Source: Planctomycetota bacterium
GTDB taxonomy: Bacteria; Planctomycetota; SZUA-567; H5-PLA8
Assembly: GCA_038227875.1 (NCBI GenBank)
Contig: JBBRPR010000113.1
Coordinates: 1-13,329 of the forward strand
Direction of reading: 5' to 3'
DNA: 13,329 nt
The notes under the pieces were generated by a model. It made no database searches, was not told the origin of the DNA, and saw nothing but the letters and a program-made list of their open reading frames with translations. Below are positions 1 to 13,329 of the stretch, one piece after another. The position numbers and the translations under genes are program-made. How positions within the stretch are numbered: position 1 is the first letter of the stretch; each line of letters starts with the position of its first letter.

Positions 1-153
1 AAAATTGCGCCGGGCAAATCCGACCGCCCCCTCGACTACGCCTTTTTCATTGCCGCGAGCCGGTTGGCAGAAATGTGCTTTATATAAATAGTGGCTTTGT
101 AGCCTTAAAAAGCCGGTCGTTAGTTCCCGCTCACGCCCGGCGATCTCTTTGAC
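1..153 (-). mobile_element. istA: Internal fragment of an IS21-family transposase (IstA), in frame with the upstream beta-helix ORF; runs off the window edge
   Basis: Minus-strand translation of 153->1 is [51 protein letters not shown]. This matches the IstA core pattern F..L.SHY.....FC.P.RGNEKG.VE..VG..RRNF, which contains the catalytic Glu of the DDE triad. No IS end is visible at the junction. Confidence 0.85.
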
Positions 154-1962
154 ACCGATGAAACTGCAATTCGTGATCGTCGCGTTGCAGCCGGAAAGCA
201 GGCCTAGCGCGCCACCTCCCACTGACGACTCGTTGGTGAATTTACAATCGGAGATCTCCGGCGCGGATCCGCTCGCATAAATCCCGCCGCCAACTGTGAC
301 GGCGCTATTCTCCGAGAACAAACAGTTGGATATCCGCGGTGCGCCGTTCTGCAGGAAGATCCCGCCCCCGTTTGACATGGCAACGTTGCTCTTGAAAGTA
401 CAATTGGCAATGGTGGGTGAGGCAGAATCGATAAACAATCCGCCACCCGATCCGTCTATGATCGGACCATCTGCGTTACCTGCTGTCACCGTCAAACCAT
501 CCAGAACGGTCGTCGCATCACTGCCCGGATACGCCTTCACTACGTGGTATGTGTTGTCGACTGGATTGCCGGTCTGTCCAATGTCGCCGCTCAAGATGGT
601 GACGTGAGTATTCCAGTTTCGCTGCGAGCGGGCGGTTTCGTTGCCTGCAAATCCGCCGTAGAGCGCCACACCCTTCTTCAAACCAAAGTAGTCCCATTGC
701 AGCGTGCCGGGTCGGTAGGTTCCGTCGGCAATCCAGATTTCGGTTCCCACGCCGGCCAGCGCCAAGCCACCCTGCAACGTCCGGAAAGCCGTCGCCCAAG
801 CCAATCCGTCTTCTGTCAATCCTGACGAATGCGCGTCCACAAAAATGATTTTGCCGGCGAAGGTGCCCTGATTCTCATAGGCACCCATGTCGGTGTACGC
901 CGGCGTGCCGATCCCGGTGTTGGTTATTGCGGTCACATCGACGCGGCCATTACCATCAAAGTCGGACAGCGTTGCGGCCGTCCCGTTGGCTGCGTCGATA
1001 CAGGGCGAGGTGTTCTGAAGATGATAGTCGCCGCTGGCGGCGTCGACGAATAGAGGATCCGCATTGATGTTGCCGGGACCCGCAAAGCCGCCCTGAATGT
1101 CGCTATAGGTAACATTCGGCGTTCCCGATAGTTCTCCGCCAACATCGTTCCAAAAAATGCAATTGGCAACGTTCGTCATGCCACCGTTGTGGCGAATCCC
1201 GCCGCCGTTTCCAGCTGGCGCTGTGTTTCCGATGAAAATGCAATTGGTCAGGTTGCTGGTGATGAGGTCAGAATAAAATCCGCCACCCGAACCGCTCGAC
1301 GCATTCCCCGTGAAAATACAATTGCTGATGTTGGCGGCGACCGGGCTGTTGTAGCACCCCAATCCGCCGCCAGCGAGCACCGCGAAGTTGTTGATGAATC
1401 GGCAGTTTGAAATCGTCGACGCGGTGTTGAAGTCGATCATACCTCCACCGCCAGATTCCGGACCGATACCAGTGGCGTTTCCGTCTCGAATCACAAATCC
1501 ATCGATGATGCCGCCGGTGGCGCCCTTGACGACGTGGTAGCTATTGTCGGTCTTGTTGCCGGGGGTCCCCAGGTCTCCGCTCAAAATGGTTGAGTTCAGT
1601 GCGGGTGCGCGTTGACCGCGGGATAATTCGGAACCCGTAAATCCACCATAAACGCCAACACCGTTGCGCAGCGTGAACGTTTTGCTCCGGTTGTCGGCAG
1701 GATTCGGGTTGTCCGTGGCATCCGCGACCGGCAAATACGTTCCCTGTTTCACCCAGATCTCATCGCCTGAGACTGACGTGGCCAGCGCGTGCTGCAGTGA
1801 CGCTGCATTCGTAGTCCAGTCCGCGCCGCTGCCCGTGTTACTTCCCGTCGGCGTCACGCGCCACGTCGTCGCGGCACGGGCTGCGAAAGTCAGGCATAGC
1901 GCTGAACACAGAACGATCCGCAGACACGATCCATATCTGCCTTTTCGCGTGGAGTTTTCCAT
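154..1962 (-). CDS. Secreted right-handed beta-helix repeat protein (pectin-lyase-like, choice-of-anchor-Q-like motif), paralog of 1992..5168; C-terminally truncated/fused to IstA at about 153
   Basis: Not in the ORF track because the frame has no stop before the window edge. ATG at 1962 with GAGGT RBS. N-terminus [36 protein letters not shown] is signal-peptide-like. Motifs [46 protein letters not shown], repeated NCxFxxNxAxx[27 protein letters not shown] and DMGAYENQG, followed by a second module ([28 protein letters not shown]). About 603 codons up to the junction. Confidence 0.9.
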
Positions 1963-1991
1963 GGTGGATACCTCGCCAGGAGAGCCGGCAT

Positions 1992-4900
1992 CTATTTCGT
2001 CACGCCGCCCTTGTCCTTCTTCGCCACGTACGATTGCGGGACGCTCTTCTGCCACACTTGCCCGTTGAAGATGACCGTCACCAGCACATTCAGTTTCGCC
2101 GTGGTGGTGGCATTCACCAACCCGGCGGAGGCAAGCGTGTCGGCGAAGGTCCCCTTGCTGAATTTGGCGCTGTACTTGGAGATCTGCAGCGGCGTCCCGG
2201 CTTTTCCAGACTTCACCGGCACCTTGATCGAACTACCGCCGCTCGTCGCCGAGCCCTTGGCATCCAGCGTGAACGATTTCACCACACCGCCGATATCGAC
2301 CACGAACATCTGCCCGGAGACCTTGAATCCATCCGGAATCAATATCAGGCCGCTCAGGCCGATGCTGTCATTGCCATGCTTGCTGAAGTCCAGCTTGACG
2401 TTCAATTTGCTCACCGACAGATTCTGCAATTCTGTCATCTTGCTCATGCCCGTCGGCAGACTGGCCGCGTCGAAGGCGTTGGAGCCCAGCGCGACTTCAA
2501 TCTCATCGAGCACGCCATCACCGTCACTGTCACCGGCAAATCCGGAGTTGGGATTGACGATGACCGTGACCGTTCCGGAATTGGTTGACGTTGCGGTCAA
2601 CGGGTCGCCGGCATTGATGGCGACTACTTTGACCACGAAATAACCGGCAGCGGCAAATGCATGCGTCGGTGTTGCGCCAACGGCGCTGGAGCCGTCTCCG
2701 AAATCCCAATTGTAGATGACCGCATCGCCGTCGGCGTCGGTGGCCGCCGCACTGAAGACCACCGATTGTCCGACGATGCACGGATTGGGCGTCGCTGAAG
2801 GCTGTGAAATCAACACTGGCGAAGTCGAATATTCATAGGCACCCATGTCGAATCCGGCGCCTCTCGGCCGCGCCGTACCCAGCACATCGGTGACAGGCGC
2901 GCCGACGGCCGTACCCGCATCAATGCACGGACTGCCTGCCTGCAGGCGCAGGTCTCCGAAGGACGTAAATCGCGGATCGGTGTTGATGTTCCCGATTCCC
3001 GAAAGCAAAGTGCCCTTCACGCAGCTGAAGTTTGTTGGAGCAGTTGCGGGAGCCATAACGTCCAGATCAGGATTGGCTGGTGAGGAATTGCCCCACAGAA
3101 TGCAGTTCGTGAGCGCTACATTCTCCACCCCGGTCAGACTCAATCCGCCATCCGATGTGCCGCTGCTATTGCCGGAGAAAGTGCAGTTCATGACGGTTCC
3201 AGGCGAGTTGCTCATTCCAGCACCTCCGCCAGTTGCCGACGCGACGTTGTTCTGAAACACGCAGTTGGTGATCGAGGTGGAAGTGTTGACAAGTGTATAC
3301 AGACCGCCGCCGTTCAAGGCAGTATTGGATTCGAAGGTACAGCCCGCAAGATTCAGCGAAAAATCTGCGACGGACGCAATCCCACCGCCCAGCGCAACCG
3401 CCGTGTTCATCGCAAATGTTGACTTCTTCACCGTTATAGTGGACGTGCTTGAGAAAATACCGCCACCGAAGCCCGTGGCATTGTTGCCGAGGAACGTGCA
3501 ATCCTGAATGGTTGGCGCCGATAGTAGGAAGGTGGCCCCACCGCCGTGACCCGCAGACGAGGTATTGCTGAAGAATGTGCAATGGGTAAGTTGTGGCGCG
3601 GCGTTGCTGGAAAATAGGGCGCCACTACTGGTGCCGCTGTTTGAAACCAGGATGCAATTTGAAATCGTGGGCGCGGCGGAATCGATGTAAATTCCCGCTC
3701 CGGTGCTGTAGATGCCGGCGCCGTTTGCGAGGCCCCCGGTGAGAGTGAATCCATCCAGAATGGCCGTTGGGCCAACGCCTGCAATCGCGGTGACGAGGTG
3801 AAAAGTGCCCGCAGGAGCTAGTCTTCCGTTCAGCACCGTCAGCGAGGGATCCGAATTGCGCTGGGCACGGGCAGTCTCCGATCCTGCAAATCCGCCGTAA
3901 ATGCCCACACCATTTTTCATGGAGATTGTGTCGGTTGGTATGGCTCCGATTTTATAGATGCCGGCCGCGACCCAGATCTCCGAAGTCGCACCAGCCACAA
4001 CCAGAGCCGACGGAAGATTGTTGAACGCCGTCGACCACGACTGGCCATCCTGCGTGGGCGAAGTGTTCTGGGAATTCACATAGATGATCTTGCCGGCGAA
4101 GCTGCCTTGATTCTCGTAGGCACCAATATCGAAGTAAGCGATTGGACCGACACCCGTGTTCGGTATGGATGGGACATCGACGCGGCCATTGCCGTCAAGA
4201 TCCAGCAGCGGTGCAACCGGACCAATGGCAGCATCGATACAGGGAGAAGTAACCTGCAGATGAAAGTCACCCGCTGCTGCGTTTACGAATTGGGGATCGA
4301 GATTGATGACAAGCGGCCCTGCAAAACCTCCCTGAACATCACTGAAACCAATGGCAGGCGCATTTCCTGCTTCACCGCCGGTGTCACCCCACAAAATGCA
4401 ATTGCTAAGAGTAAGTCCGCCACCATTGCGGTAGACGCCACCGCCTGTGACCGCCGTGTTTTTTGAAAAGGTGCAGTTGTTGATGCTGACGTTGATCAGA
4501 TCTGAATAGAACCCGCCGCCCAGGTTGCCCGACGTATTCCCGGTGAAAAGGCAATTGGTGACGCTCGCCGCAGTGACATTATTGTAGCATAAAAGTCCAC
4601 CTCCTGCTATCGACGCAGAATTGTTGATAAACTTGCAGTTCATAATGATCGACGCAGTATTCAAGTCGATCATTCCACCGCCACCGGCATCAAGCACCGG
4701 TCCGTTGGCGTTGCCATCTCTGATCGTAAATCCATCGATCGTGCCGCCGGTTGCGCCGCGGACGACATGATACGAATGTGCGCCACCCGATAGAGCACCG
4801 CTCAAAATGGTTGGGTTTTGTGCCCAGTTGCGTTGAATGCGTAATGTTTCTTTCCCGTTAAAGCCGCCGTAGACGAAAGCTCCAGCGACCAGTGTGAAGG

Positions 4901-5168
4901 ATTTGGTGACGTCCGCCGTGCTCGTCGGCCTGTACGTTCCGGCTGCGACCCAGATCTCATCACCACCGACGGCCACGGCCAGCGCCGACTGCAGATCGGT
5001 GTAAGCATTGTCCCACGTCGTACCGTTGTTCAATCCACCGGCGGAGCCATTGACGTATCGCACCGTCCCGGCTTGTGCGCCCAACGCAAGAAAGAGGGTC
5101 AAGCCGAGTAACAATGACTTCAAGGTGCTTGAACTACCGGATGTGTACGTGCATGTGGAGTTTATCAT
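1992..5168 (-). CDS. Large secreted/surface protein: signal peptide, two beta-helix modules each ending in an SPCIDA...D.GAYE motif, PKD domain, DxDxDG Ca-binding-like motif, Lys-rich C-terminal domain
   Basis: Track ORF 1992..5210. ATG at 5168 is preferred (AAGGGA upstream; hydrophobic [16 protein letters not shown] signal). Duplicated EIWVAAGxY / YGGFxGxETxRxQRN / NCxFxxN-GGG repeats; PKD signature [27 protein letters not shown]. Confidence 0.92.
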
Positions 5169-5550
5169 GACGGGCCATCCCTTCCGATTTGCGCATATTC
5201 TCAAACTCACGCCGTGAGTTGATCTTTATAAGTAAAGCGATGCAACGATTGTGCCGCACACGTGCTCATCGCGGGCGGCATCACTGCGCACTCACAATCG
5301 ATGCGCCCCCCATGATTTGCAGGATTCCGCGCACACTGCAGGCTGCTCAACGTCGCAACTCACGACGTTTGAGTTCGCAGGAATGCAACAACGCCTCGTT
5401 AAGATGGGAAATCAAACTTGTACGGCTATTCCGACTCCGTTACTGAAGTCCAGAACTTGAATTATTGATATTCGGGTCTATATCTATTTATTTCATGATG
5501 TCACAGGCGAGGATTGGATGTCGGATGGCAACCCACTCCGGGGATCGAGC

Positions 5551-6579
5551 ATGACTCCACGAGAACGAATGGATCTGGTCTTCGCCTGCAAACACGCCGA
5601 TCGCGTTCCGTTTGTTCCCGCCATCTACGAACACAAGGCCTTCCTGCTGAACAAAACCCCATCTGAAGTGGCGCAAAGTGAAGACTTGATGGTCAACGGT
5701 GGCCTGGCGGAATTCGACACCTACCGGCCCGACTTACTGACCGTGGGTCTGGATGTCTACAACGTCGAAGCCGAAGCGCTGGGCTGCAAAGTCAAATACC
5801 ACGGCACCACTGACGTTCCAGGCGTTGAATCGCATTTCAGCAGCATCGATGGGCTGGTTGGAAGAAATCACGTCGATCCGGAACGCTCCGGACGCATGGG
5901 TCTATTTCTGCGCGCGGCCGAACGGCTCCACCAGCAACTGCGGGCTCAAGTCCATGTGCGCGGCGCGGTCTCCGGACCATTCAGCCTCAGTTGCGAATTA
6001 ATCGGCTGCGAGAACATGCTCATCGCGCTGCTGGAAGACACCTCAACAGCGGTCGACGTACTGGAAATCGCCGCGCAAACCTGCGGCGACTATGCCTGCG
6101 CGTTTATCAAGAGGGGCGTGGACGCCGTTATTTTTGACAGTCGCGCCGCTCCGCCCTTTGTCTCGCCGTCCACGTGGGAACGGCAACTCCTCCCCTGCTA
6201 CATGAAACTGACGGCACAAATGCGGCAGGCCGGCGCGCGCCATATTCCGCTGGTAATCGGCGGTAACACCACGTCTATTGTGCCGGTTCTCATTCGCACC
6301 GGCGCCACTCAATTCCTCTGTGATTGGGGGAGTAATTTCAATACATGGCGCGACACCTGCGCCGGGATTACGGCACCGTTTCGAGCGAATCTTGATGCGC
6401 GTCTGATTCACACCGGGACTGTCGCTGCGATCACCGCTCAAACGCAGGCGCTGCTCGAACAGGCTGCGAGTGTGCCAGGATTCATTTTGGGAACGGGTGT
6501 GTGCGCCTACGACATCAACCCCGCGAACATCCTGACCGTTCGCGAGATTCTGGAAACCCGTGCGCTCAAAGGGTCGTAA
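5551..6579 (+). CDS. Uroporphyrinogen decarboxylase (URO-D)/MtaA-CmuA superfamily TIM-barrel protein, function unknown
   Basis: Typical N-terminus MTPRERM.....DRVPFVP, plus YNVEAEALGCKV, DPERSGRM, GAVSGPFSL and the C-terminal GFILGTG...DINPANI. Start 5551 is preferred over 5518 because it matches the family N-terminus. Confidence 0.85.
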   Translation: MTPRERMDLVFACKHADRVPFVPAIYEHKAFLLNKTPSEVAQSEDLMVNGGLAEFDTYRPDLLTVGLDVYNVEAEALGCKVKYHGTTDVPGVESHFSSIDGLVGRNHVDPERSGRMGLFLRAAERLHQQLRAQVHVRGAVSGPFSLSCELIGCENMLIALLEDTSTAVDVLEIAAQTCGDYACAFIKRGVDAVIFDSRAAPPFVSPSTWERQLLPCYMKLTAQMRQAGARHIPLVIGGNTTSIVPVLIRTGATQFLCDWGSNFNTWRDTCAGITAPFRANLDARLIHTGTVAAITAQTQALLEQAASVPGFILGTGVCAYDINPANILTVREILETRALKGS

Positions 6580-6598
6580 AGCAGAGCAAAGGCCTCGA

Positions 6599-7750
6599 CT
6601 ATACTGGAATCGAAGTTTCACGCGCGGCCGCCAGCATGCGGATAAAATTTTTCGCTGGCACGCCGCTATGAATTGAATTCGACGAGCCCAGGATGTAGCC
6701 GCCCTGCCCAGCCAATCCGTGAATCAACCGCTGCACTTCATTGCGGATCTGCGCTTCCGTGCCGTCCACCAGCACCTTGCCGCAACTCATCCCGCCCCAC
6801 AACGTCAACTTCGGATAGCGCGTGCGCAATTTCATCAAATCCATTCCTGCATCGACATCAATTTCCCCATAGCCGTGAACTCCAGCCTCCAGGAACAGCA
6901 TGTCCGCGATACTGTAGGTGTCGCCGTCCGTGCGGAAGACATACGGTTTGCCCAGTTGGTCGGCCAGCGCGATGATTCGCTTGAGCGGCGGAAGCAGGAA
7001 TTCCCGGAAGGCCTTCGGGCCATAGACCACGCCGCGGTTGTCGGCCAGATCTCCTCCGGCCCAGAAACAGTCCGCGCCATGCGACGCATACTGCCTCATC
7101 GCAATCAGATTCATCTCGCAGAGACCATTCAAGTAACGATGAATCAACTCCGGCCCCTCAATCATCGCCGCAAGCCATTCTGCGTGAAACGGAACCGCCA
7201 GCCCTCCGCAGGGCGCACAGACGTATCGGTCAGTACCTGCTTTGCGCGTCAGGAGGTCGAATTCCAGCAAAGCCTGAGCGTCTGGTGTCCAACCGTTGGC
7301 CAGACTTTTTTCCATCGCTTCGACCTGCTCCTGGATCGCCGCCGCGCCGCGCTGCTTGACCGCATCGTCGCTGCAATCAAAGATGTCGCTGGACTCGTCA
7401 TAGCGATAGATCGAGAAGGATTTCTTCGGGTCTCCGTAGAGATACGTCGTCTCATCCAGTTTCTTTGTCGGCCGTTCAGTGTGACGCCACGGCATGCGGA
7501 TCAGATCGAAGTCCACGGTCTTCACCAGCGCAGCCACGTCGTCGATCATCGTCGCGACAAACTCCGCGTGGGCCGCCTCGCCCTTGAGCCACGCCTCACT
7601 CTCCCCGCGGCGCAGGCTCCCGCCGCCCGTCAAGGCGCTTCGCCCCAGGACCTCCGAAGCCACCGCCGAACACACGCTCTGCTCGAACACGGGCACACGA
7701 TCGGGCGCACGATGTTGAAAAGTCAGGCGAACCCGTTCTTTGGATGTCAT
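6599..7750 (-). CDS. URO-D superfamily protein, function unknown
   Basis: MTSKERVRLTFQHRAPDRVPVFE, GGDLADNRGVVYGPKAFREFLLP, GMDLMKLRTRYPKLTLWGG and GGYILGSSNSIHSGVPAKNF. Strong GGAGGAG RBS upstream. Confidence 0.88.
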   Translation of the reverse strand: MTSKERVRLTFQHRAPDRVPVFEQSVCSAVASEVLGRSALTGGGSLRRGESEAWLKGEAAHAEFVATMIDDVAALVKTVDFDLIRMPWRHTERPTKKLDETTYLYGDPKKSFSIYRYDESSDIFDCSDDAVKQRGAAAIQEQVEAMEKSLANGWTPDAQALLEFDLLTRKAGTDRYVCAPCGGLAVPFHAEWLAAMIEGPELIHRYLNGLCEMNLIAMRQYASHGADCFWAGGDLADNRGVVYGPKAFREFLLPPLKRIIALADQLGKPYVFRTDGDTYSIADMLFLEAGVHGYGEIDVDAGMDLMKLRTRYPKLTLWGGMSCGKVLVDGTEAQIRNEVQRLIHGLAGQGGYILGSSNSIHSGVPAKNFIRMLAAARETSIPV

Positions 7751-7896: not shown

Positions 7897-9117
7897 CTAT
7901 TTCGCGCGGATGTTGTTCATGAAGGCCGACACGCTGCTGCACAGACGTTCAGCCTGCCGCGACAGTTCTCCCGCGGCGTCCTGAATCAGCGTAACTGAAA
8001 CTCCCGTTTCATGCGCGGCGGTATTCACGCCGGCGATGTTCCGGGTCACGTGAACCACTGCCTGAGCGGCGCGCTGCGTGTTTCGGCTGATCTCTTCGGT
8101 GGCGCCTTTCTGCTCGGCGATGGATGAGGAAATGAGGTTGGTGGATTCATTGACGCTCAGAATCGCCTTCGAAATCCTGGCAATGGCCGCGGCCGCTTCC
8201 GTCGAGGCCTTGTTCAAGGCCCGGATTTCCGTCTCAATATTGTCCGTCGCAGCGGCCGTTTCCTTCGAGAGCGCTTTCACTTCCGAAGCGACCACGCCAA
8301 AGCCTTTGCCCGCGGCGCCAGCGTGGGCCGCCTCAATCGTCGCGTTCAACGCCAGCAGATTGGTCTGGGAGGCGATGTCGTGGATCAGTTTCACCACGCT
8401 ACCGATGCGGGATTGCGCCTTGCAGAGCTCCTGTATTACGGCGTCCGTGCGGGTGGCTTCGGTGGCGGCGCTGTGAATCAGTTGCGCCGACTGCTGCGTC
8501 TGGCGGTCGATTTCCGCGGCCGAGGCCTGGAGTTCCGTGGCGGCCGAGGCCACCGAATCGACGCTGGCGGAACTTTCCTGCGAGGCGGACGTCACTGCTT
8601 CGGCACGCTCGGTCGTCTCATGGGACTGATCCGCCAGGGACTTGGCCGTCGCTTCGAATTCCGTCGCGGCGGACGCCACTGAATTGACCACCGTCTGCAC
8701 CGTCGTCTCGAATTCGTTGGCCAGCTGGTCCTGGCGCGCGCGAGCCGCGGCCAGCGCGGCGGCGCTGTTTTTCATTTCTTCGGTACCGGCGTTGATCAGC
8801 CGCGCGCCGTTCCGGAACGAACCGGGCAGCCCGCGCAGAATCACGCGGCGGTAGAATTTGCCCTTGGCCGCCGCATCCAGCGATGCGCTGGATTCCCGCA
8901 CGTAGGCATCGGTGATATCCAGCAGATGATTGATGGCGTCAACGCAACGGGAAAGCGGGCCGTCCGTGGGGCCGGTCAGCGCGCGAACTTCCAGATTGCC
9001 CCGGGCCGCCGCTTCGCAGACGCGGGCCAGTTCCAGCAATCCCGTCTCGAGCGTGGAATCCGTGGGCGGAGCGCTGGTGGCCGTATGCAGCGTCGATTCG
9101 GCAGTGAGCGTGGACAT
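7897..9117 (-). CDS. Soluble methyl-accepting chemotaxis protein (HAMP-like N-terminus plus MCP signalling domain, no TM helices)
   Basis: Signalling hairpin [37 protein letters not shown]; heptad coiled-coil flanks; N-terminal AARGNLEVR...AINHLLD HAMP-like segment; no hydrophobic span. Confidence 0.93.
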
Positions 9118-9135: not shown

Positions 9136-9660
9136 CTAAAGTGAGAATACGAATTCGTCATAACAGACTTTCTGACCTTCAAGCACCGTCTTGAGCAACT
9201 CTGCGGCGGCGATCATGCCCGCGTGCGGATCCAGCCCGGCTGCTTCTTTTGCGCAGAGCGCTTTATAAATGGGAATGACCGCATCGACGGCTTTTCGTTC
9301 GGGCACGCGGCGATTGGAATGGTAGCCAACGATTTTTCCGGCATCGTCGAAACTGGGCGTCACGTGCGCGAAGACCCAGTAGTGATCTCCGTTGCGGGAC
9401 ATGTTGACCACGTATGCAAAGATTTCGCCGCCGGACATAATCTGGCTCCAGAGCAGCGCAAAGACGCAACGGGGCATATCCGGATGCCGGATGAGGTTGT
9501 GCGGCTGCCCGAGCAATTCGTGCTGGCTATATCCAGAAACGCGCTCAAACACCCGGTTGGCATAGGTAATGATGCCCTTGGTGTCGGTCTTGCTGACGAT
9601 GATTTCTTCATCGCCGAATTGTCGTTCGATACCCGTTGGAATCACGTGCGGGCGCGCCAT
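9136..9660 (-). CDS. Stand-alone Aer/CetB-type PAS domain protein (probably FAD-binding)
   Basis: IIVSKTDTKGIITYANRVFERVSGYSQHELLGQPHNLIRHPDMPRCVFALLW...YVVNMSRNGDHYWVFAHVTP is the Aer PAS signature. Likely start ATG 9660 (MARPHVIPTG) with GGAGGA RBS rather than the track start at 9750. Ends 18 nt before the MCP gene. Confidence 0.92.
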   Translation of the reverse strand: MARPHVIPTGIERQFGDEEIIVSKTDTKGIITYANRVFERVSGYSQHELLGQPHNLIRHPDMPRCVFALLWSQIMSGGEIFAYVVNMSRNGDHYWVFAHVTPSFDDAGKIVGYHSNRRVPERKAVDAVIPIYKALCAKEAAGLDPHAGMIAAAELLKTVLEGQKVCYDEFVFSL

Positions 9661-9860
9661 ACGATCCTCCACTCTGCAAATTCTGCCCGATAAGACCTCC
9701 GGCAACATGGGCAATGCATCTACAACAGATCCTATGCCAAGTAGTCGCAACAGGGCGCGGCGTCAGATACGAAAATTGGATTCTGCAAATTATGCGAGGG
9801 AGGCAGAGCGGGCGTGCACGCGGCCCAGGCGGCCGCGCGGTTGTCCATCGAAGAAAAAAA

Positions 9861-9885
9861 CGTCCCTGCGGGGATTCGAACGCCG
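9861..9885 (-). mobile_element. 3' fragment of a tRNA-Glu-like gene, probable att site (left boundary of an integrated element)
   Basis: Minus strand reads CGGCG-TTCGAAT-CCCCG-CAGGGAC-G-TTTTTTT: T-loop, 3' T-stem, acceptor 3' strand and discriminator G, as in tRNA-Glu (...GGGACG-CCA). The matching 5' acceptor strand GTCCCTG is absent upstream, so this is not an intact tRNA. Confidence 0.72.
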
Positions 9886-10010
9886 CTGGCGCTTGCGCCG
9901 CCGACTTGAAAGTTTCTGGAAACAAGTCGATATCTTCCTATGAAGAAGCTGAAACTCAGGCTCCAAACCAGAGCGCGGGTAATAGTCTTCCCGGAAGCAT
10001 TCCAGAGCCT

Positions 10011-10042
10011 TTTATACATAAAAACTATGCAGGGTTTATGCA
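10011..10042 (+). repeat. Three short direct repeats (TTTATACA, ACTATGCA, TTTATGCA), candidate integrase arm-type sites
   Basis: Repeats at 10011, 10024 and 10035, in an AT-rich patch about 130-160 bp inside the putative att core. Confidence 0.4.
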
Positions 10043-10142
10043 CGCCTTCCCTGACGACCTCGCAACTGTGGTTTCGAGTTGGGCGAAGCTGCCTGACGCG
10101 TTAAAGGCTGGCATCGTGGCAATGGTGAAGGCGGCGACCTAG
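10038..10142 (+). CDS. Short amphipathic peptide/ORF tail PDDLATVVSSWAKLPDALKAGIVAMVKAAT; start uncertain
   Basis: 3' end of track ORF 9636..10142. I recall this DLxxVVxxWxxLPxAxxAGIxAMV motif from att-adjacent ORFs in Planctomycetes (recollection, not searched). The frame stays open across the att fragment. Confidence 0.55.
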   Translation: MHAFPDDLATVVSSWAKLPDALKAGIVAMVKAAT

Positions 10143-10202
10143 CCTCAGAGCTCCTGATCCGAACGTGTAGCCTGCCGAACGATCTACCGCTACAATGCCC
10201 AC

Positions 10203-10337
10203 ATGTCCGCCAAGAAACCCCGCTCACTGTCGCCGCCAAAGCCCGCGCGCGTCACCTGCCTGCGCTGTGAACTGAAGTTCATGTCGCCGGATCGACGACA
10301 TATCCGGCTGTGCCCGAAGTGCCGGCAGCGGAGGTAG
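10203..10337 (+). CDS. 44-aa zinc-ribbon microprotein (CxxC-x14-CxxC)
   Basis: MSAKKPRSLSPPKPARVTCLRCELKFMSPDRRHIRLCPKCRQRR. TAGCCT(10168)-17 nt-TACAAT(10191-10196) lies 6 nt before the ATG, consistent with a leaderless transcript. Not in the ORF track. Confidence 0.7.
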   Translation: MSAKKPRSLSPPKPARVTCLRCELKFMSPDRRHIRLCPKCRQRR

Positions 10338-10338
10338 C

Positions 10339-10479
10339 GTGACCCTGGCATCGTTCCTCGACTTCACCGCCGACGTTTCCTTGTGGCCATTCCTGCCTCT
10401 TGCGCTTGCGCTCGTCGTTGCCATCGTAGCGTTTAGGAAGAGCCCGCCGCCCGGGCAGTACGCGCTCGCCATTACTTAA
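10339..10479 (+). CDS. 46-aa single-pass membrane peptide
   Basis: GTG start 1 nt after the upstream stop, with GGAGG 4 nt upstream. MTLASFLDFTADVSLWPFLPLALALVVAIVAFRKSPPPGQYALAIT has a hydrophobic span followed by RK. Confidence 0.45.
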   Translation: MTLASFLDFTADVSLWPFLPLALALVVAIVAFRKSPPPGQYALAIT

Positions 10480-11701
10480 CGGCATTCACGATTCGCCCAA
10501 TCTCCGACTGTATCGATTCCTTGTCCGTCGGCATTTTGATGAACCCCTGAACCGATAGCCTCACGGCTCGTTCCGCAACCGCGTCATTCATGTCTACGTC
10601 TCCGACAAGCAGGATGGGAATCTTGCGAGTGGCTTTGTCCGCGCGAACTTTCTCGGCCAACTTCCAAGGCTCGAATTCTTTTGCACCCAGATTGATCACG
10701 AACAACGCCGGGTAGTGGTCGAGCGACTTGAGCAAGGCGTCGACATGGTTTCTTGCGAGAATCGGCTCATGGCCCAGCGCCCGAACCGCATCGACGACAA
10801 CATTCATTCGACCGTCCAGCGCGTGTGTAATGAGCACACGTCGTCTGCCGACATCGTTGCGCGCCCTTAGAAAAGCCTCGAAGTCCCGCACCCGAACTTT
10901 CCAGAATCCGTTCGCCAACTTAACGGCGGGCAGTCGTCTCGTGTGGATCCACTGTTTCACTGCCTCGCCCGTCACGTTAAGAATCTTGCCGATGTCGTTC
11001 GGTGACAGGAGTCGCTCTGTGTCGGTCGGCGCTTTCGGCGACTGAACCCTCTGCGCTGCGGTGGTGACTCGATCCAGCATTGGTTTTACTGGTTCGGCTG
11101 TCGGCCGGTCCTCGATGGTCATCGCTTTCAGTCTCGGTATTGGGTTGGCAATCTGGTCGAACAGGGTGCGGGACTGCGAGAGCAAACGATAATGGCGCTT
11201 GCATAAGCCGCGAGCGACGACCTCCCCCGCGCACTGTGAATACTTTTCGTCTGAATACTCCCGCACGACGCAGCGCCCTTTCTGTACCTCGTGGCCGCGG
11301 GCGTACACGATGGTCGGCTGTGGCTTGGAGAAGTCGTTGAGGTTCAAATCGGGTCTCTGCCATATGCCGGCATAGTGATGCCTGCATAGGCCCCGGCGGG
11401 TCGCTGGCGCTTTGCAGGGGATGTCGTTTTCAAGGAGGGCGCAGATGCCTTCCCGCGCATTGGGATTCGGTTTGAGGTCTATCCTCCGGCTTTGACGCGG
11501 CAGCGCGTACGTCTCAAGCAATCCTTTGCGCGTCATATAACTGCGATGGCGATTGCAAAGCCCACGAGACGCCACGGGGTTGGAGCATGGAATGTCATCC
11601 TCGATCAAGATGCACAGTCCCGACGATGGGTCCGCCTTCTTCGTGAAGATTCGCGTTCGCTGCTCCGATACCGCCGAGCTACCAACAACATCTTTCTGCA
11701 T
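10472..11701 (-). CDS. Regulator fusion: three C-C-C-H (RGLCxxH) putative zinc fingers, excisionase-like HTH, atypical receiver domain
   Basis: Ligand sets C30/C39/C49/H52, C87/C96/C106/H109 and C144/C157/C167/H170. HTH_17-like segment LLSPNDIGKILNVTGEAVKQWIHTRRLPAVKLANGFWKVRVRDFEAFL (about 231-278). CheY-like fold from about 287 (RRVLIT...PALFVINL...KIPILLVG...GFIKMP). Confidence 0.85.
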   Translation of the reverse strand: MQKDVVGSSAVSEQRTRIFTKKADPSSGLCILIEDDIPCSNPVASRGLCNRHRSYMTRKGLLETYALPRQSRRIDLKPNPNAREGICALLENDIPCKAPATRRGLCRHHYAGIWQRPDLNLNDFSKPQPTIVYARGHEVQKGRCVVREYSDEKYSQCAGEVVARGLCKRHYRLLSQSRTLFDQIANPIPRLKAMTIEDRPTAEPVKPMLDRVTTAAQRVQSPKAPTDTERLLSPNDIGKILNVTGEAVKQWIHTRRLPAVKLANGFWKVRVRDFEAFLRARNDVGRRRVLITHALDGRMNVVVDAVRALGHEPILARNHVDALLKSLDHYPALFVINLGAKEFEPWKLAEKVRADKATRKIPILLVGDVDMNDAVAERAVRLSVQGFIKMPTDKESIQSEIGRIVNAVK

Positions 11702-11731
11702 GTCATTCGCCTCGTAACAATAAGGTTCCAG

Positions 11732-12025
11732 CTAGGGCGCAGCTTTTCGGAGTCGTTCTTTCAACTCCGATTCGGCCATCAAGATCATTGTCCCTTCAAC
11801 TTTGAAACTCAGTCCATCTCGACGAAGTTGCTGCAACACAGCGCACGTGGTCTTGTACTTCCGGATTGCGTCTCCGGCGGGGATCCAGCCAGCGGGAGGG
11901 ACAATGCGCCCCTTGGGGCGGCCCTTGCAGTTGGGATTCGCCTTCTTGAACCCCTTGCGCCAGCGGAGAAGGCTCCGCGGGTCCACGCCGAGATTCCGTG
12001 CGTACTTCTTCAAGTCTTCGTCCAT
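11732..12025 (-). CDS. Small basic DNA-binding protein: HTH, GRPKG linker, excisionase-like HTH (paralog A)
   Basis: GGAGG RBS. ARNLGVDPRSLLRWRK is HTH-like. Gap-free similarity to 12414..12719. Confidence 0.8.
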   Translation of the reverse strand: MDEDLKKYARNLGVDPRSLLRWRKGFKKANPNCKGRPKGRIVPPAGWIPAGDAIRKYKTTCAVLQQLRRDGLSFKVEGTMILMAESELKERLRKAAP

Positions 12026-12038
12026 GCGTCCTCCCGCT

Positions 12039-12317
12039 CTACGCGCACCTCACCCGCAGCGCCATCAACCGCCCAGCCTTGAACTTTACGCGCCGGCGTG
12101 CAGGCACACGTACTTTCACACCCGTTAGTGGATTCCGTGCCGTACGCGGCGTGGTGGTGCGCGTTTCAAACACGCCAAAGTCCCGCAGCTCGATCCTACC
12201 ATCCCGCGCCAGCGCTTCGACGATGTGGTCGAACGTGAGCTGAACCACCGCTTGGACCTGCTGATGCTGGACGCCGGTTCGGACTGCAATCTGATTCACG
12301 ATGTCGGCCTTGGTCAT
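12039..12317 (-). CDS. HU/IHF-family histone-like DNA-binding protein (IHF-beta-like)
   Basis: MTKADIVNQIA...GRIELRDFGVFE...PRTARNPLTGVKVRVPARRRVKFKAGRLM. ATG 12317 with GGAG 6 nt upstream. Confidence 0.95.
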   Translation of the reverse strand: MTKADIVNQIAVRTGVQHQQVQAVVQLTFDHIVEALARDGRIELRDFGVFETRTTTPRTARNPLTGVKVRVPARRRVKFKAGRLMALRVRCA

Positions 12318-12340
12318 CAATGTCTCCGCGCGGGGCCGAC

Positions 12341-12405
12341 AGTTTACGGGCAGCGCGGTTTGTGGTGCAAGCGGCTATTGCACGCCAACACCCGCGCCTT
12401 ACCAT
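12341..12405. promoter_or_regulatory. Back-to-back divergent sigma70-like promoters whose -35 boxes form an inverted repeat (GTGCAA-N7-TTGCAC)
   Basis: Rightward: TTGCAC 12378-12383, 16 nt, TACCAT 12400-12405, ATG at 12414. Leftward (minus strand): TTGCAC 12370-12365, 18 nt, TAAACT 12346-12341, then RBS and the IHF/HU start. Confidence 0.62.
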
Positions 12406-12413
12406 CACGTCAG

Positions 12414-12719
12414 ATGCGCAAACCACTCACCCCCGCTGAGCTCAAAGCCATGGCCGCGCGCCTGGGCGTGCCGCTGCAGGACGTGGCACGCTGGCACCGG
12501 GTCGAGGGACCACGCTACGTCTCAAAGTTGCCTGGCCGCCCAAAAGGTAAGCCTCAGCGGCCGGCCGGAACGTTAACGGTGCGGGACGCGATGGTGAAGT
12601 TTGGCATCACTGCGGCGGAGTTGAGGAAGTGGCGCGAGCAGGGGCTCCCGTACCGGACGGTGGGCACGATGATATTGATGAAGGAAACCGACTTGAAGGC
12701 GTGGATTCAGAAGCGGTGA
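12414..12719 (+). CDS. Small basic DNA-binding protein: HTH, GRPKG linker, excisionase-like HTH (paralog B), probably leaderless
   Basis: MRKPLTPAELKAMAARLGVPLQDVARW...GRPKGKPQRPAGTLTVRDAMVKFGITAAELRKWREQGLPYRTVGTMILMKETDLKAWIQKR (101 aa). Start reassigned from 12225, which would overlap the IHF gene, based on alignment with paralog A. Confidence 0.82.
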   Translation: MRKPLTPAELKAMAARLGVPLQDVARWHRVEGPRYVSKLPGRPKGKPQRPAGTLTVRDAMVKFGITAAELRKWREQGLPYRTVGTMILMKETDLKAWIQKR

Positions 12720-12817
12720 GCGTAGCTGGCGGGCAACTACGGTCCGAGGATCCGCCCCGTCTGACCAACGACATTAGTAAATCCCGGCGCACCAAGGATA
12801 GTCGATAGCTTGATCAG

Positions 12818-13012
12818 CTACGTGTGGCCTTGCTTATCAGTGGTTAACTTTTGCACCGCTTCGCGCAACATTGTGGCGACGTCCTGACCGCTCTTCTCGG
12901 CAAACAGATGAACGGCACGGATCTCTGATTGAGAAATGGGGAAGCTAAGAACGATTGAAGTCGCTGTAGCTCTGCGCTGATGAGCTGATATCTTTGATCT
13001 TGAACTGGCCAT
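12818..13012 (-). CDS. Putative ribbon-helix-helix (CopG-like) protein
   Basis: Alternating strand IVLSFPI, helix SQSEIRAVHLFAEKSG, helix DVATMLREAVQKL. Start is 13012 or 13024. Confidence 0.55.
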   Translation of the reverse strand: MASSRSKISAHQRRATATSIVLSFPISQSEIRAVHLFAEKSGQDVATMLREAVQKLTTDKQGHT

Positions 13013-13068
13013 GTTAATACCCATATCCCAGTCTGATCATATATGACGGCAGTCCATTTCAAGCCAAT

Positions 13069-13260
13069 TCATGGTTCCAGTTTCACTCCGTTGCCGAGGT
13101 CCAGTGTCTGCGTGGGCGGCAAGTTCACGCGCTTGGCGTAGTCGGCGACGGACTCCACGCCGTCCCAGAGCGGAAAGGCCCGCGCAGGTTCGGCCGCCGA
13201 CAACGAGGCTGCGAACGCCAGCACGATCAGAGGCAAAATACGCAGATTGCAGCAGTTCAT
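13069..13260 (-). pseudogene. Truncated N-terminus of a secreted formylglycine-generating enzyme (FGE/SUMF1)-family protein
   Basis: Signal peptide LRILPLIVLAFAASLSA|AEP, then FPLWDGVESVADYAKRVNLPPTQTLDLGNGVKLE-P-stop. TLDLGNGVKLE normally continues as (L/M)VLIPAGxFxMG into the FGE domain; no such continuation is seen downstream. Start could be 13260, 13284 or 13287. Confidence 0.68.
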
Positions 13261-13329
13261 ACGATTGGATGCTCGGCCATGCATCATCCACGCTTTATAC
13301 CCCTTTGCTCGCTACGCTCGCAACGGCAA

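Follow-up and report, generated by a model that had tools for sequence, protein, structure and literature searches.

Positions 9861 to 13074 of contig JBBRPR010000113.1 from a Planctomycetota bacterium (13,329 nt, analysed over its full length and called the window in the following) hold a segment in which an IHF/HU-family protein, two double helix-turn-helix (HTH) proteins and a 409-amino-acid (aa) fusion of zinc modules, an HTH_17 domain and a pseudo-receiver are encoded close together. This segment is tentatively read, with a confidence slightly short of even, as the tRNA-proximal end of an integrated Planctomycetota island, which has since been rearranged or cut down and has kept a cassette of DNA-binding proteins. 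The reading is based on a unique tRNA-type 21-mer at the left edge, on the small-protein family encoded next to it (the W..LP family), whose members recur beside tRNA T-arms, and on a right edge at which an FGE-sulfatase gene of about 350 codons breaks off after codon 57. Moreover, HTH_17 proteins of excisionase/MerR-type fold occur together with an IHF-like protein, and a set of this kind recurs at one other locus (L022) beside genes for a methyltransferase, an LmuB/DndD-like ATPase and HmaC. The 409-aa protein and its 78%-identical relative P0002 fit a captured, fast-evolving paralogue, and the open reading frames (ORFs) of the cassette show a coding-type GC content at third codon positions (GC3).

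All ORFs of an initial annotation of this DNA were confirmed in position (Table 1), as was its inventory of about 3.2 kb of small DNA-binding proteins, comprising an IHF/HU protein, three HTH proteins, a CxxC microprotein, a peptide with a hydrophobic stretch and a CopG-like protein. Its statement that no enzyme, integrase, replication or structural gene is present was likewise borne out for 9861-13075 in scans with Pfam, NCBIfam, PHROG and PADLOC, and no transfer genes were found in the segment.

Table 1. Features of the segment and of its right flank.
Feature	Position	Strand	Remarks
T-arm and 3′ acceptor strand fragment (21-mer)	9861-9881	-	unique in the window; read as left boundary, attR-type relic
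W..LP small protein, about 78 aa	9906-10142	+	TTG start proposed; overlooked in the initial annotation
Zinc-ribbon-like microprotein (CxxC...CxxC), 44 aa	10203-10337	+	Cys at 19, 22, 37 and 40
Peptide with one hydrophobic helix, 46 aa	10339-10479	+	GC3 0.745
Fusion of three zinc modules, disordered linker, HTH_17 and CheY-fold pseudo-receiver, 409 aa	10472-11701	-	Pfam, alignment, AlphaFold2
Double-HTH protein (helical pair, GRPKG linker, C-terminal winged HTH), 97 aa	11732-12025	-	paralogue of 12414-12719
IHF/HU-family DNA-bending protein, 93 aa	12039-12320	-	PF00216; first gene of putative minus-strand operon
Divergent intergenic region, 93 bp	12321-12413	.	between the IHF-like operon and the 12414-12719 gene
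Double-HTH protein (helical pair, GRPKG linker, HTH_17 winged helix), 101 aa	12414-12719	+	HTH_17
CopG/ribbon-helix-helix-like protein, 68 aa	12818-13024	-	language-model features only; GC3 0.52
FGE-sulfatase (PF03781) N-terminal stump, signal peptide and about 57 codons	13075-13287	-	outside the cassette; stop at 13069-13071

The tRNA-type fragment and the adjacent W..LP gene

Read on the minus strand, the 21-mer at the left edge has the layout of a tRNA 3′ end, with T-stem, TTCGAAT loop, T-stem, a 7-nt acceptor strand and the discriminator G, and it is followed by a run of seven T at 9854-9860. With up to three mismatches allowed it occurs only once in the window, and it was matched in none of 200 shuffles. 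A C-C mismatch in the T-stem was read from the sequence. When ARAGORN was run at the 80% threshold, only a poor 95-nt cloverleaf of the type 'tRNA-Gly' was reported, a truncated Rfam match was obtained to the tRNA-like mascRNA T-arm (15 bits, E-value 0.2), and a blastn search with 60 nt against E. coli genomes, which aimed at a named tRNA, returned no match. Of the label 'tRNA-Glu-like 3′ fragment' that had been given to this site, the T-arm and acceptor-like sequence is present, but no tool or blastn match names Glu. Support for a tRNA-type 3′ fragment as the start of the segment is thus partial and thin, with indirect backing from the T-arms near relatives of the adjacent gene described below. 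A CTTTCAA sequence about 30 nt upstream was considered as a Glu anticodon loop and rejected, as it is without a stem. The T run was also rejected as a terminator, since a terminator scanner finds none there.

The gene next to the fragment codes for a small protein with the C-terminal motif DLAxVVxxWxxLPxAxKAGIVAMVKA. The TTG at 9906 is its likely start, because the resulting 78 aa fit the nearest Atlas clusters, which are Planctomycetota hypotheticals of 70-76 aa (similarity 0.90-0.91). The alternative ATG at 10038 would leave 34 aa, and in several alignments the homology extends upstream of it. The reading frame that runs through the 21-mer ends in MHAFPDDLATVVSSWAKLPDALKAGIVAMVKAAT.

When 1.84 billion representatives were searched in full by HMMER with the 86 residues after the fragment as query, there were 75 matches at an E-value of 0.001 or below and none at 1e-10 or below. 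The relatives nearly all have 38-161 aa and match through the C-terminus, and the longer ones often open with peptides that look like translated tRNA sequence (GFDSPRLH, WGFESPLRH, AGSNPAP, MEAGGIEPPS, GGFEPPR, RWESNPH). For counting, a heptapeptide upstream of the W..LP motif had to be back-translatable to a strict tRNA T-arm; this strict test replaced a looser criterion, under which 26 of 75 matches had been scored against a background of 13.5. A strict T-arm was found upstream of the motif in 19 of 73 matches, all 19 belonging to the 45 matches in which the motif is preceded by 40 residues or more. When the upstream regions were shuffled 100 times, the count averaged 2.5 and never exceeded 9. 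T-arm and motif are 37-82 codons apart in these relatives, 18 of the 19 falling within 45-82 codons, and in the window, where the T-arm is antisense, the distance is about 72 codons. Judging from the translated sequences, the unit of a tRNA T-arm and a W..LP gene recurs in other metagenomic ORFs, and the W..LP proteins appear as an uncharacterised planctomycete family of small proteins that is recurrently found beside tRNA T-arms. This recurrence supports att (attachment site) adjacency, as it is expected at the ends of tRNA-targeting islands. If the island reading is true, the W..LP protein of about 75 aa would be a cheap marker of island ends beside tRNA genes in Planctomycetota.

The truncated gene at the right edge

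The ORF at 13069-13287 on the minus strand (72 aa) has 112 longer relatives, nearly all of which carry PF03781. It is 79% identical to residues 1-57 of a 346-aa relative (P0066), and the homology ends exactly at 13075, a position that the initial annotation had used as the end of its module, overlooking that it is also the exact end of the FGE-sulfatase homology. No other piece of the FGE-sulfatase gene of about 350 codons was found in the window, which ends at 13329, 255 bp from this junction. The right edge is a gene-truncating breakpoint. Clean integration into a tRNA does not truncate such a gene. The truncation points to a later deletion or rearrangement, to a scar within a larger island or to an assembly join. 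It also favours a decayed remnant, which the initial annotation had named as its own fallback.

An assembly chimera, in which unrelated loci were joined at FGE-sulfatase paralogues (13075), at the T-arm (9861-9881) or at both, so that the module boundaries would be artefacts, is considered very unlikely. Such a join would be helped by the high conservation of FGE-sulfatase N-termini among many paralogues (most of the 112 matches are 60-90% identical to the stump), by the closeness of the junction to the contig end, and by T-arms as multi-copy join sites, since T-arms are repeated in every genome. However, the spacing between fragment and W..LP gene is as in the relatives, so that the left join looks natural, and 78%-identical relatives of both the 409-aa protein and the 101-aa double-HTH protein exist independently, so that the genes are real.

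An intact and active integrative element or prophage is unlikely as well. The window would then show its distal control arm only, with integrase and intact tRNA located beyond 13329 and the FGE-sulfatase stump as an internal scar or a cargo pseudogene. The strand and position of the fragment fit a 3′ relic at the end that is distant from an integrase, the contig stops soon after the stump, and an excisionase-type fold together with an IHF-like gene is what tyrosine-recombinase excision uses; in the lambda type, excision requires a Xis-type factor and IHF. On the other hand, a gene of host type that is truncated only 3.2 kb into the element points to decay, and replication, structural and transfer genes are missing from the segment. 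The initial annotation had described an att-adjacent control module of such an element. Of this, the att adjacency is supported and the IHF-like protein and the excisionase fold stand, while a decayed remnant is favoured over a working element.

The DNA-binding cassette and the origin of the segment

The genes of the minus strand follow each other in the order IHF-like protein, 97-aa double-HTH protein and 409-aa protein, and are taken as a putative operon. The IHF-like protein matches PF00216 with an E-value of 3.8e-27 over residues 2-88, in agreement with its earlier naming as an IHF/HU subunit. It reaches 68.1 bits on the NCBIfam models of IHF alpha and beta (cut-offs 111 and 115), as compared with 35.5 bits on HU-alpha and 33.4 bits on HU-beta (cut-offs 162 and 157), and by these scores it is nearer to IHF than to HU and the equivalog of neither. 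Its best PDB match is single-chain IHF (2iif, E-value 4.4e-20), and a match to phrog_379 (E-value 2e-24) indicates that phages carry the family too.

The two double-HTH proteins are 39% identical to each other (E-value 6e-17). In the 101-aa protein HTH_17 was found with 27.7 bits at a cut-off of 27, together with a match to phrog_66, 'excisionase and transcriptional regulator' (E-value 7.8e-5), and in the 97-aa protein no Pfam match was significant (HTH_Tnp_1 at 0.011 only). Five candidates for close relatives of the 101-aa protein yielded one besides itself (P0065, 78%), and a PDB profile search with the family gave nothing significant. An AlphaFold2 model built from a four-sequence alignment (model confidence, pLDDT, 82) places a winged helix at the C-terminus, and a basic GRPKG linker, which is shared by both proteins and which we take to be AT-hook-like, is unstructured in the model (pLDDT 60-69). 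The top folds retrieved with Foldseek (E-values 0.1-0.2, probabilities 0.97-1.0) were the excisionase RdfS (8dgl), DNA-binding domains of terminase small subunits, BldC, Tn916 Xis (1y6u), RacA and a MerR regulator. According to the model, the double-HTH proteins have an excisionase/MerR-type winged-helix fold. Excisionase function does not follow from it, because BldC, RacA and the terminase DNA-binding domains share this fold. As to the three excisionase-like HTH proteins previously proposed, HTH_17 exceeds the cut-off in two of them, and the third is linked to the group by its 39% paralogy only. The intergenic region shared by the IHF-like gene and the 101-aa gene contains a 6-bp inverted repeat (GTGCAA-7 nt-TTGCAC, 12365-12383, read from the sequence), which is a possible operator; a sigma-70-like site was not found in this region.

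In the 409-aa protein HTH_17 covers residues 231-281 (30.3 bits, cut-off 27), and its domain is weakly matched by the BldC structure 6ama_A (E-value 0.29). Three C-x-C-x-GxC-xx-H modules at residues 30-52, 87-109 and 144-170 are weakly DUF5763-like: the protein scores 17.5 bits on PF19067, below the gathering cut-off of 26.3, and the aligned relative P0006, in which the likeness is clear, scores 52 bits. In the AlphaFold2 model of the whole protein (pLDDT 84) these putatively zinc-binding modules fold confidently, with a pLDDT of about 90. The C-terminal domain has a CheY fold (Foldseek TM 0.85, 0.83-0.89 when target-normalised, E-value about 1e-8), and PF00072 was not reported for the protein at an E-value of 0.1 or below. 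The best PDB sequence match of this part is to residues 154-265 of PleD, the non-phosphorylated D2 domain. The phospho-acceptor D53 of PleD aligns with Asn in the 409-aa protein, D2 likewise having Asn, and the end of beta-1 reads LITHALD, without the acidic pair by which receivers are judged. With the phospho-acceptor Asp replaced and a non-phosphorylated domain as the closest match, the former description of this protein as a signal-coupled regulator is not upheld.

Four proteins of about 500 aa (P0006, P0054, P0055 and P0060) carry five or more C..C..GxC..H modules of the DUF5763 type. They share a conserved C-terminal domain that by eye resembles a PIN-type nuclease (YLDKNVLFD ... FVTxDxxF) and that has no match in Pfam or PADLOC.

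The HTH_17-receiver half of the 409-aa protein has 63 relatives, mostly stand-alone proteins of about 225 aa, and in most members of this planctomycete family the phospho-acceptor column of the alignment holds N, C or S. In a tree built by a quick method and midpoint-rooted, so that branch placements are approximate, the 409-aa protein groups with P0002 (support 100), and the long stem that carries the two is nested in a chromosomal clade. The gene is not a typical mobile-element gene, and the long stem fits a captured, fast-evolving paralogue. On the basis of these comparisons the 409-aa regulator looks like a captured or duplicated gene of the host lineage, a fast-evolving offshoot of the chromosomal family, which has apparently lost the basic N-terminus of the family and gained zinc modules that are otherwise found in the DUF5763 proteins of about 500 aa.

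The gene for the HTH_17-pseudo-receiver protein of about 225 aa is itself conserved in planctomycetes (L001-L019; e.g. L001 at 9959-10612, L002, L005, L006 and L010). In several metagenome-assembled genomes (MAGs) it has an anthranilate-synthase-like gene on one side and, on the other, an unknown 259-aa gene plus one for a 1218-aa SNF2 helicase, and several MAGs have two to four paralogues. The consensus N-terminus of the family contains a KRKRGRPR motif, which is presumably AT-hook-like.

With an HTH-receiver alignment, 23 loci were fetched in a genome scan; the genome of the window itself is not among them. The set of IHF-like, double-HTH and HTH-receiver genes was found at one of the 23 loci (L022), where genes for two HTH_17-HTH_17-receiver proteins, for an IHF/HU protein that shares 41% identity with that of the window and for a 153-aa double-HTH_17 protein form a cluster, bordered by a type II secretion operon on one side and by a defence island on the other. 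There is thus at least one recurrence of the three-part set, and it is located in a variable region. The combination, which the initial annotation had recognised from no described element, has a similar cluster at L022 and is absent from the other 22 loci. In the tree the HTH-receiver copies of L022 belong to a clade distant from that of the window. The flanking PAS, methyl-accepting and FGE-sulfatase genes occur at none of the 23 loci, and no relative of the W..LP gene was found there (best E-value 0.19, inside an unrelated gene of L020). Besides a type II methyltransferase and an unknown protein of 440 aa, the defence island of L022 (13069-20322) encodes an LmuB/DndD-like SMC ATPase and the AAA+ ATPase HmaC (E-value 9.6e-249).

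Several results weigh against an island origin. At the left edge, the T-loop 10-mer taken alone is at chance (2 matches at up to one mismatch, 1.19 expected), ARAGORN at default settings reports no tRNA in the window and no intact tRNA gene in the contig, and Rfam reports no tRNA in the whole window or in two short stretches. No second copy of the 21-mer exists in the contig at up to three mismatches, and no repeat family convincingly includes it; the second copy that the initial annotation suggested looking for, within an intact tRNA-Glu by an integrase, is thus missing within the contig. With neither integrase, intact tRNA nor second att copy in the contig, the earlier picture of a control cassette with working recombination is not sustained. 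The tRNA adjacency of the W..LP family is read from protein read-through only. The T-arms of its 19 relatives lie in both orientations (8 sense, 11 antisense), so that the W..LP gene would not always be at the same island end, and acceptor pairing does not discriminate a whole tRNA from a fragment, because 6-7 of 7 pairs also form at wrong spacings. GC, GC3 and tetranucleotide use of the segment are not distinct from the flanks. The 409-aa protein has no match in the phage and plasmid collections, the double-HTH protein none in the plasmid collection and the 78-aa protein none in the phage collection. At 22 of the 23 fetched loci the HTH-receiver relatives have housekeeping neighbours (among them anthranilate synthase, SNF2 helicase, AdoHcy hydrolase, Tex, GlnD and Ser/Thr kinases) and no HU or double-HTH relative, and no integrase was found among the neighbour ORFs scanned in 15 of these 22. 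At L022, neither an integrase nor a tRNA lies within 10 kb on either side.

Many of these observations would also suit a resident, non-mobile regulatory cluster, BldC-like or nucleoid-associated, in which the 21-mer would be an old relic or a coincidence. On this explanation, which is regarded as somewhat unlikely, planctomycetes have expanded HTH_17 and IHF/HU paralogues and the segment is one such chromosomal regulon. It draws on the nesting of the HTH-receiver half in a family that lies beside housekeeping genes, on the flank-like composition, on the missing phage and plasmid matches of the proteins searched, on the lack of an integrase in the window and at L022, and on a fold that is common to RacA and to BldC, a developmental regulator of Streptomyces. 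It is opposed by the enrichment of the neighbouring 78-aa family beside tRNA T-arms, by the truncated gene at the right edge, by the position of the sole recurrence of the set next to a defence island and by the very small number of close relatives of the double-HTH protein.

If the segment is the remnant of an island end, an att-type tRNA 3′ relic would survive there together with the terminal W..LP gene, which reads inward, and the surviving cassette would consist of the minus-strand operon, the divergent double-HTH paralogue and the CopG-like protein. The IHF-like protein would bend DNA, and the excisionase-fold winged-HTH proteins would bind nearby repeats, both in the 93-bp control region and near the island end. 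Their joint effect may be repression, or architectural control, of transcription and recombination at the end of the island. Via the shared intergenic region the divergent double-HTH protein could regulate its own gene, and the pseudo-receiver would work by protein contacts or dimerisation and not by phosphorylation. A further-reaching version is distinctly unlikely: it holds that the segment represents an undescribed Planctomycetota family of tRNA-associated islands, the ends of which are marked by the W..LP protein, and in which an own architectural kit replaces host IHF and classical Xis in directing recombination or silencing the island. The kit would comprise the IHF-like bender, the AT-hook-linked double-HTH proteins and the zinc-module/HTH/pseudo-receiver regulator derived from a core host family.

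Known systems, remaining ORFs and neighbouring genes

Tyrosine-recombinase islands and prophages that target tRNA genes (lambda and P4 type, and ICEMlSymR7A with its RdfS) resemble the segment in the partial tRNA 3′ copy at one boundary and in the combination of small winged-HTH proteins of excisionase/MerR fold (RdfS 8dgl best, Tn916 Xis 1y6u) with an IHF-family bender. They differ from the window, which shows neither an integrase nor a second repeat nor an intact tRNA and in which the right end is a broken host gene. Moreover, the segment carries its own IHF-like gene, whereas in the known islands IHF is supplied by the host, and its HTH proteins are two-domain proteins with an AT-hook-like linker, one HTH protein being fused to zinc modules and a pseudo-receiver. 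BldC of Streptomyces (MerR/Xis-like; 6ama and 6amk, both in the top Foldseek list of the 101-aa protein) has the same HTH_17-type fold, but it is a single-domain, chromosomal protein, while in the window the domain either comes after another helical module and a basic linker or forms part of a fusion with a receiver. With the D2 domain of PleD the 409-aa C-terminus shares the CheY fold and the Asn at the phospho-acceptor position; the outputs differ, being GGDEF in PleD and an N-terminal HTH_17 with zinc modules here. The HU-like protein Phu of plasmid pCAR1 is a nucleoid-associated protein on a mobile element and in this respect resembles the HU/IHF-family gene inside the putatively acquired segment, where, in contrast, the gene heads an operon with two HTH_17 proteins and a 'stealth' or silencing role is hypothetical.

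Mobile elements of Planctomycetota are poorly described. The term 'DUF5763' occurs in no paper, and the part of the literature that was covered contained no paper on planctomycete integrative elements. The DUF5763 modules, the W..LP protein and the AT-hook-like double-HTH proteins are uncharacterised parts, while the overall logic is familiar. If the island reading is true, the cassette would exemplify islands that have their own IHF-like protein and, with it, excisionase-fold regulators; if it is not, the segment would be one more cluster of expanded planctomycete HTH_17 and IHF/HU paralogues. Either way this copy looks truncated and is by itself a poor experimental model.

The remaining ORFs of the segment are small. 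The 44-aa microprotein shows the four-Cys pattern of the zinc ribbon previously proposed for it, but its Pfam zinc-ribbon matches are weak only (E-values 0.017-0.08, with HypA at 0.017 and Zn_ribbon_19 at 0.052); it also matches phrog_13335 (E-value 0.0049) and has a GC3 of 0.80. Two nt after its stop the 46-aa ORF starts, which had been called a transmembrane peptide. It has a hydrophobic, putatively transmembrane stretch of 19 residues (mean Kyte-Doolittle value 2.39) and no family match in Pfam, PHROG or NCBIfam. The 68-aa ORF has no Pfam, NCBIfam or PHROG match, and its earlier naming as ribbon-helix-helix-like is reflected in Atlas feature similarities of 0.93-0.95 to clusters of CopG, RHH_1, RHH_5, TacA1 and NikA-like proteins; the CopG-like assignment is a lead only. 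A toxin partner gene does not adjoin it. PADLOC reported weak matches of the HTH to mad1 (E-values 4e-5 to 8e-5), and membership in a defence system was not accepted.

The GC content in the window ranges from 0.51 to 0.66, and the named relatives of its proteins are all from Planctomycetota MAGs. The genes between the two outermost ones of the segment have a GC3 of 0.68-0.80, which is of coding type, and the flanking genes have 0.64-0.77. The two outermost genes, for the W..LP and the CopG-like protein, have a GC3 of about 0.52, a contrast which hints that the ends and the middle of the segment differ in history.

To the left of the segment the window contains genes for two large surface proteins (DUF5123/PKD/PMP-repeat), two URO-D genes, a PAS gene and a methyl-accepting gene. 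The surface proteins are encoded at 1-5210 on the minus strand by tandem paralogous genes with overlapping ends, which code for secreted proteins. One has 685 aa and is open at the contig start, and the other has 1072 aa; DUF5123 and Chlamydia-PMP-repeat signatures occur in both, and the 1072-aa protein additionally has PKD and TSP3. The two convergent URO-D (uroporphyrinogen decarboxylase family) genes at 5518-7750, the second of which matches only the C-terminal half of the profile, are probably methyltransferase-like paralogues rather than haem enzymes. A 406-aa protein with a methyl-accepting signalling domain and no obvious membrane segment is encoded at 7897-9117 on the minus strand, with the PAS gene (9136-9750, minus strand) directly upstream, and the tRNA-like fragment with its T run lies about 100-200 bp upstream of this PAS/methyl-accepting operon.

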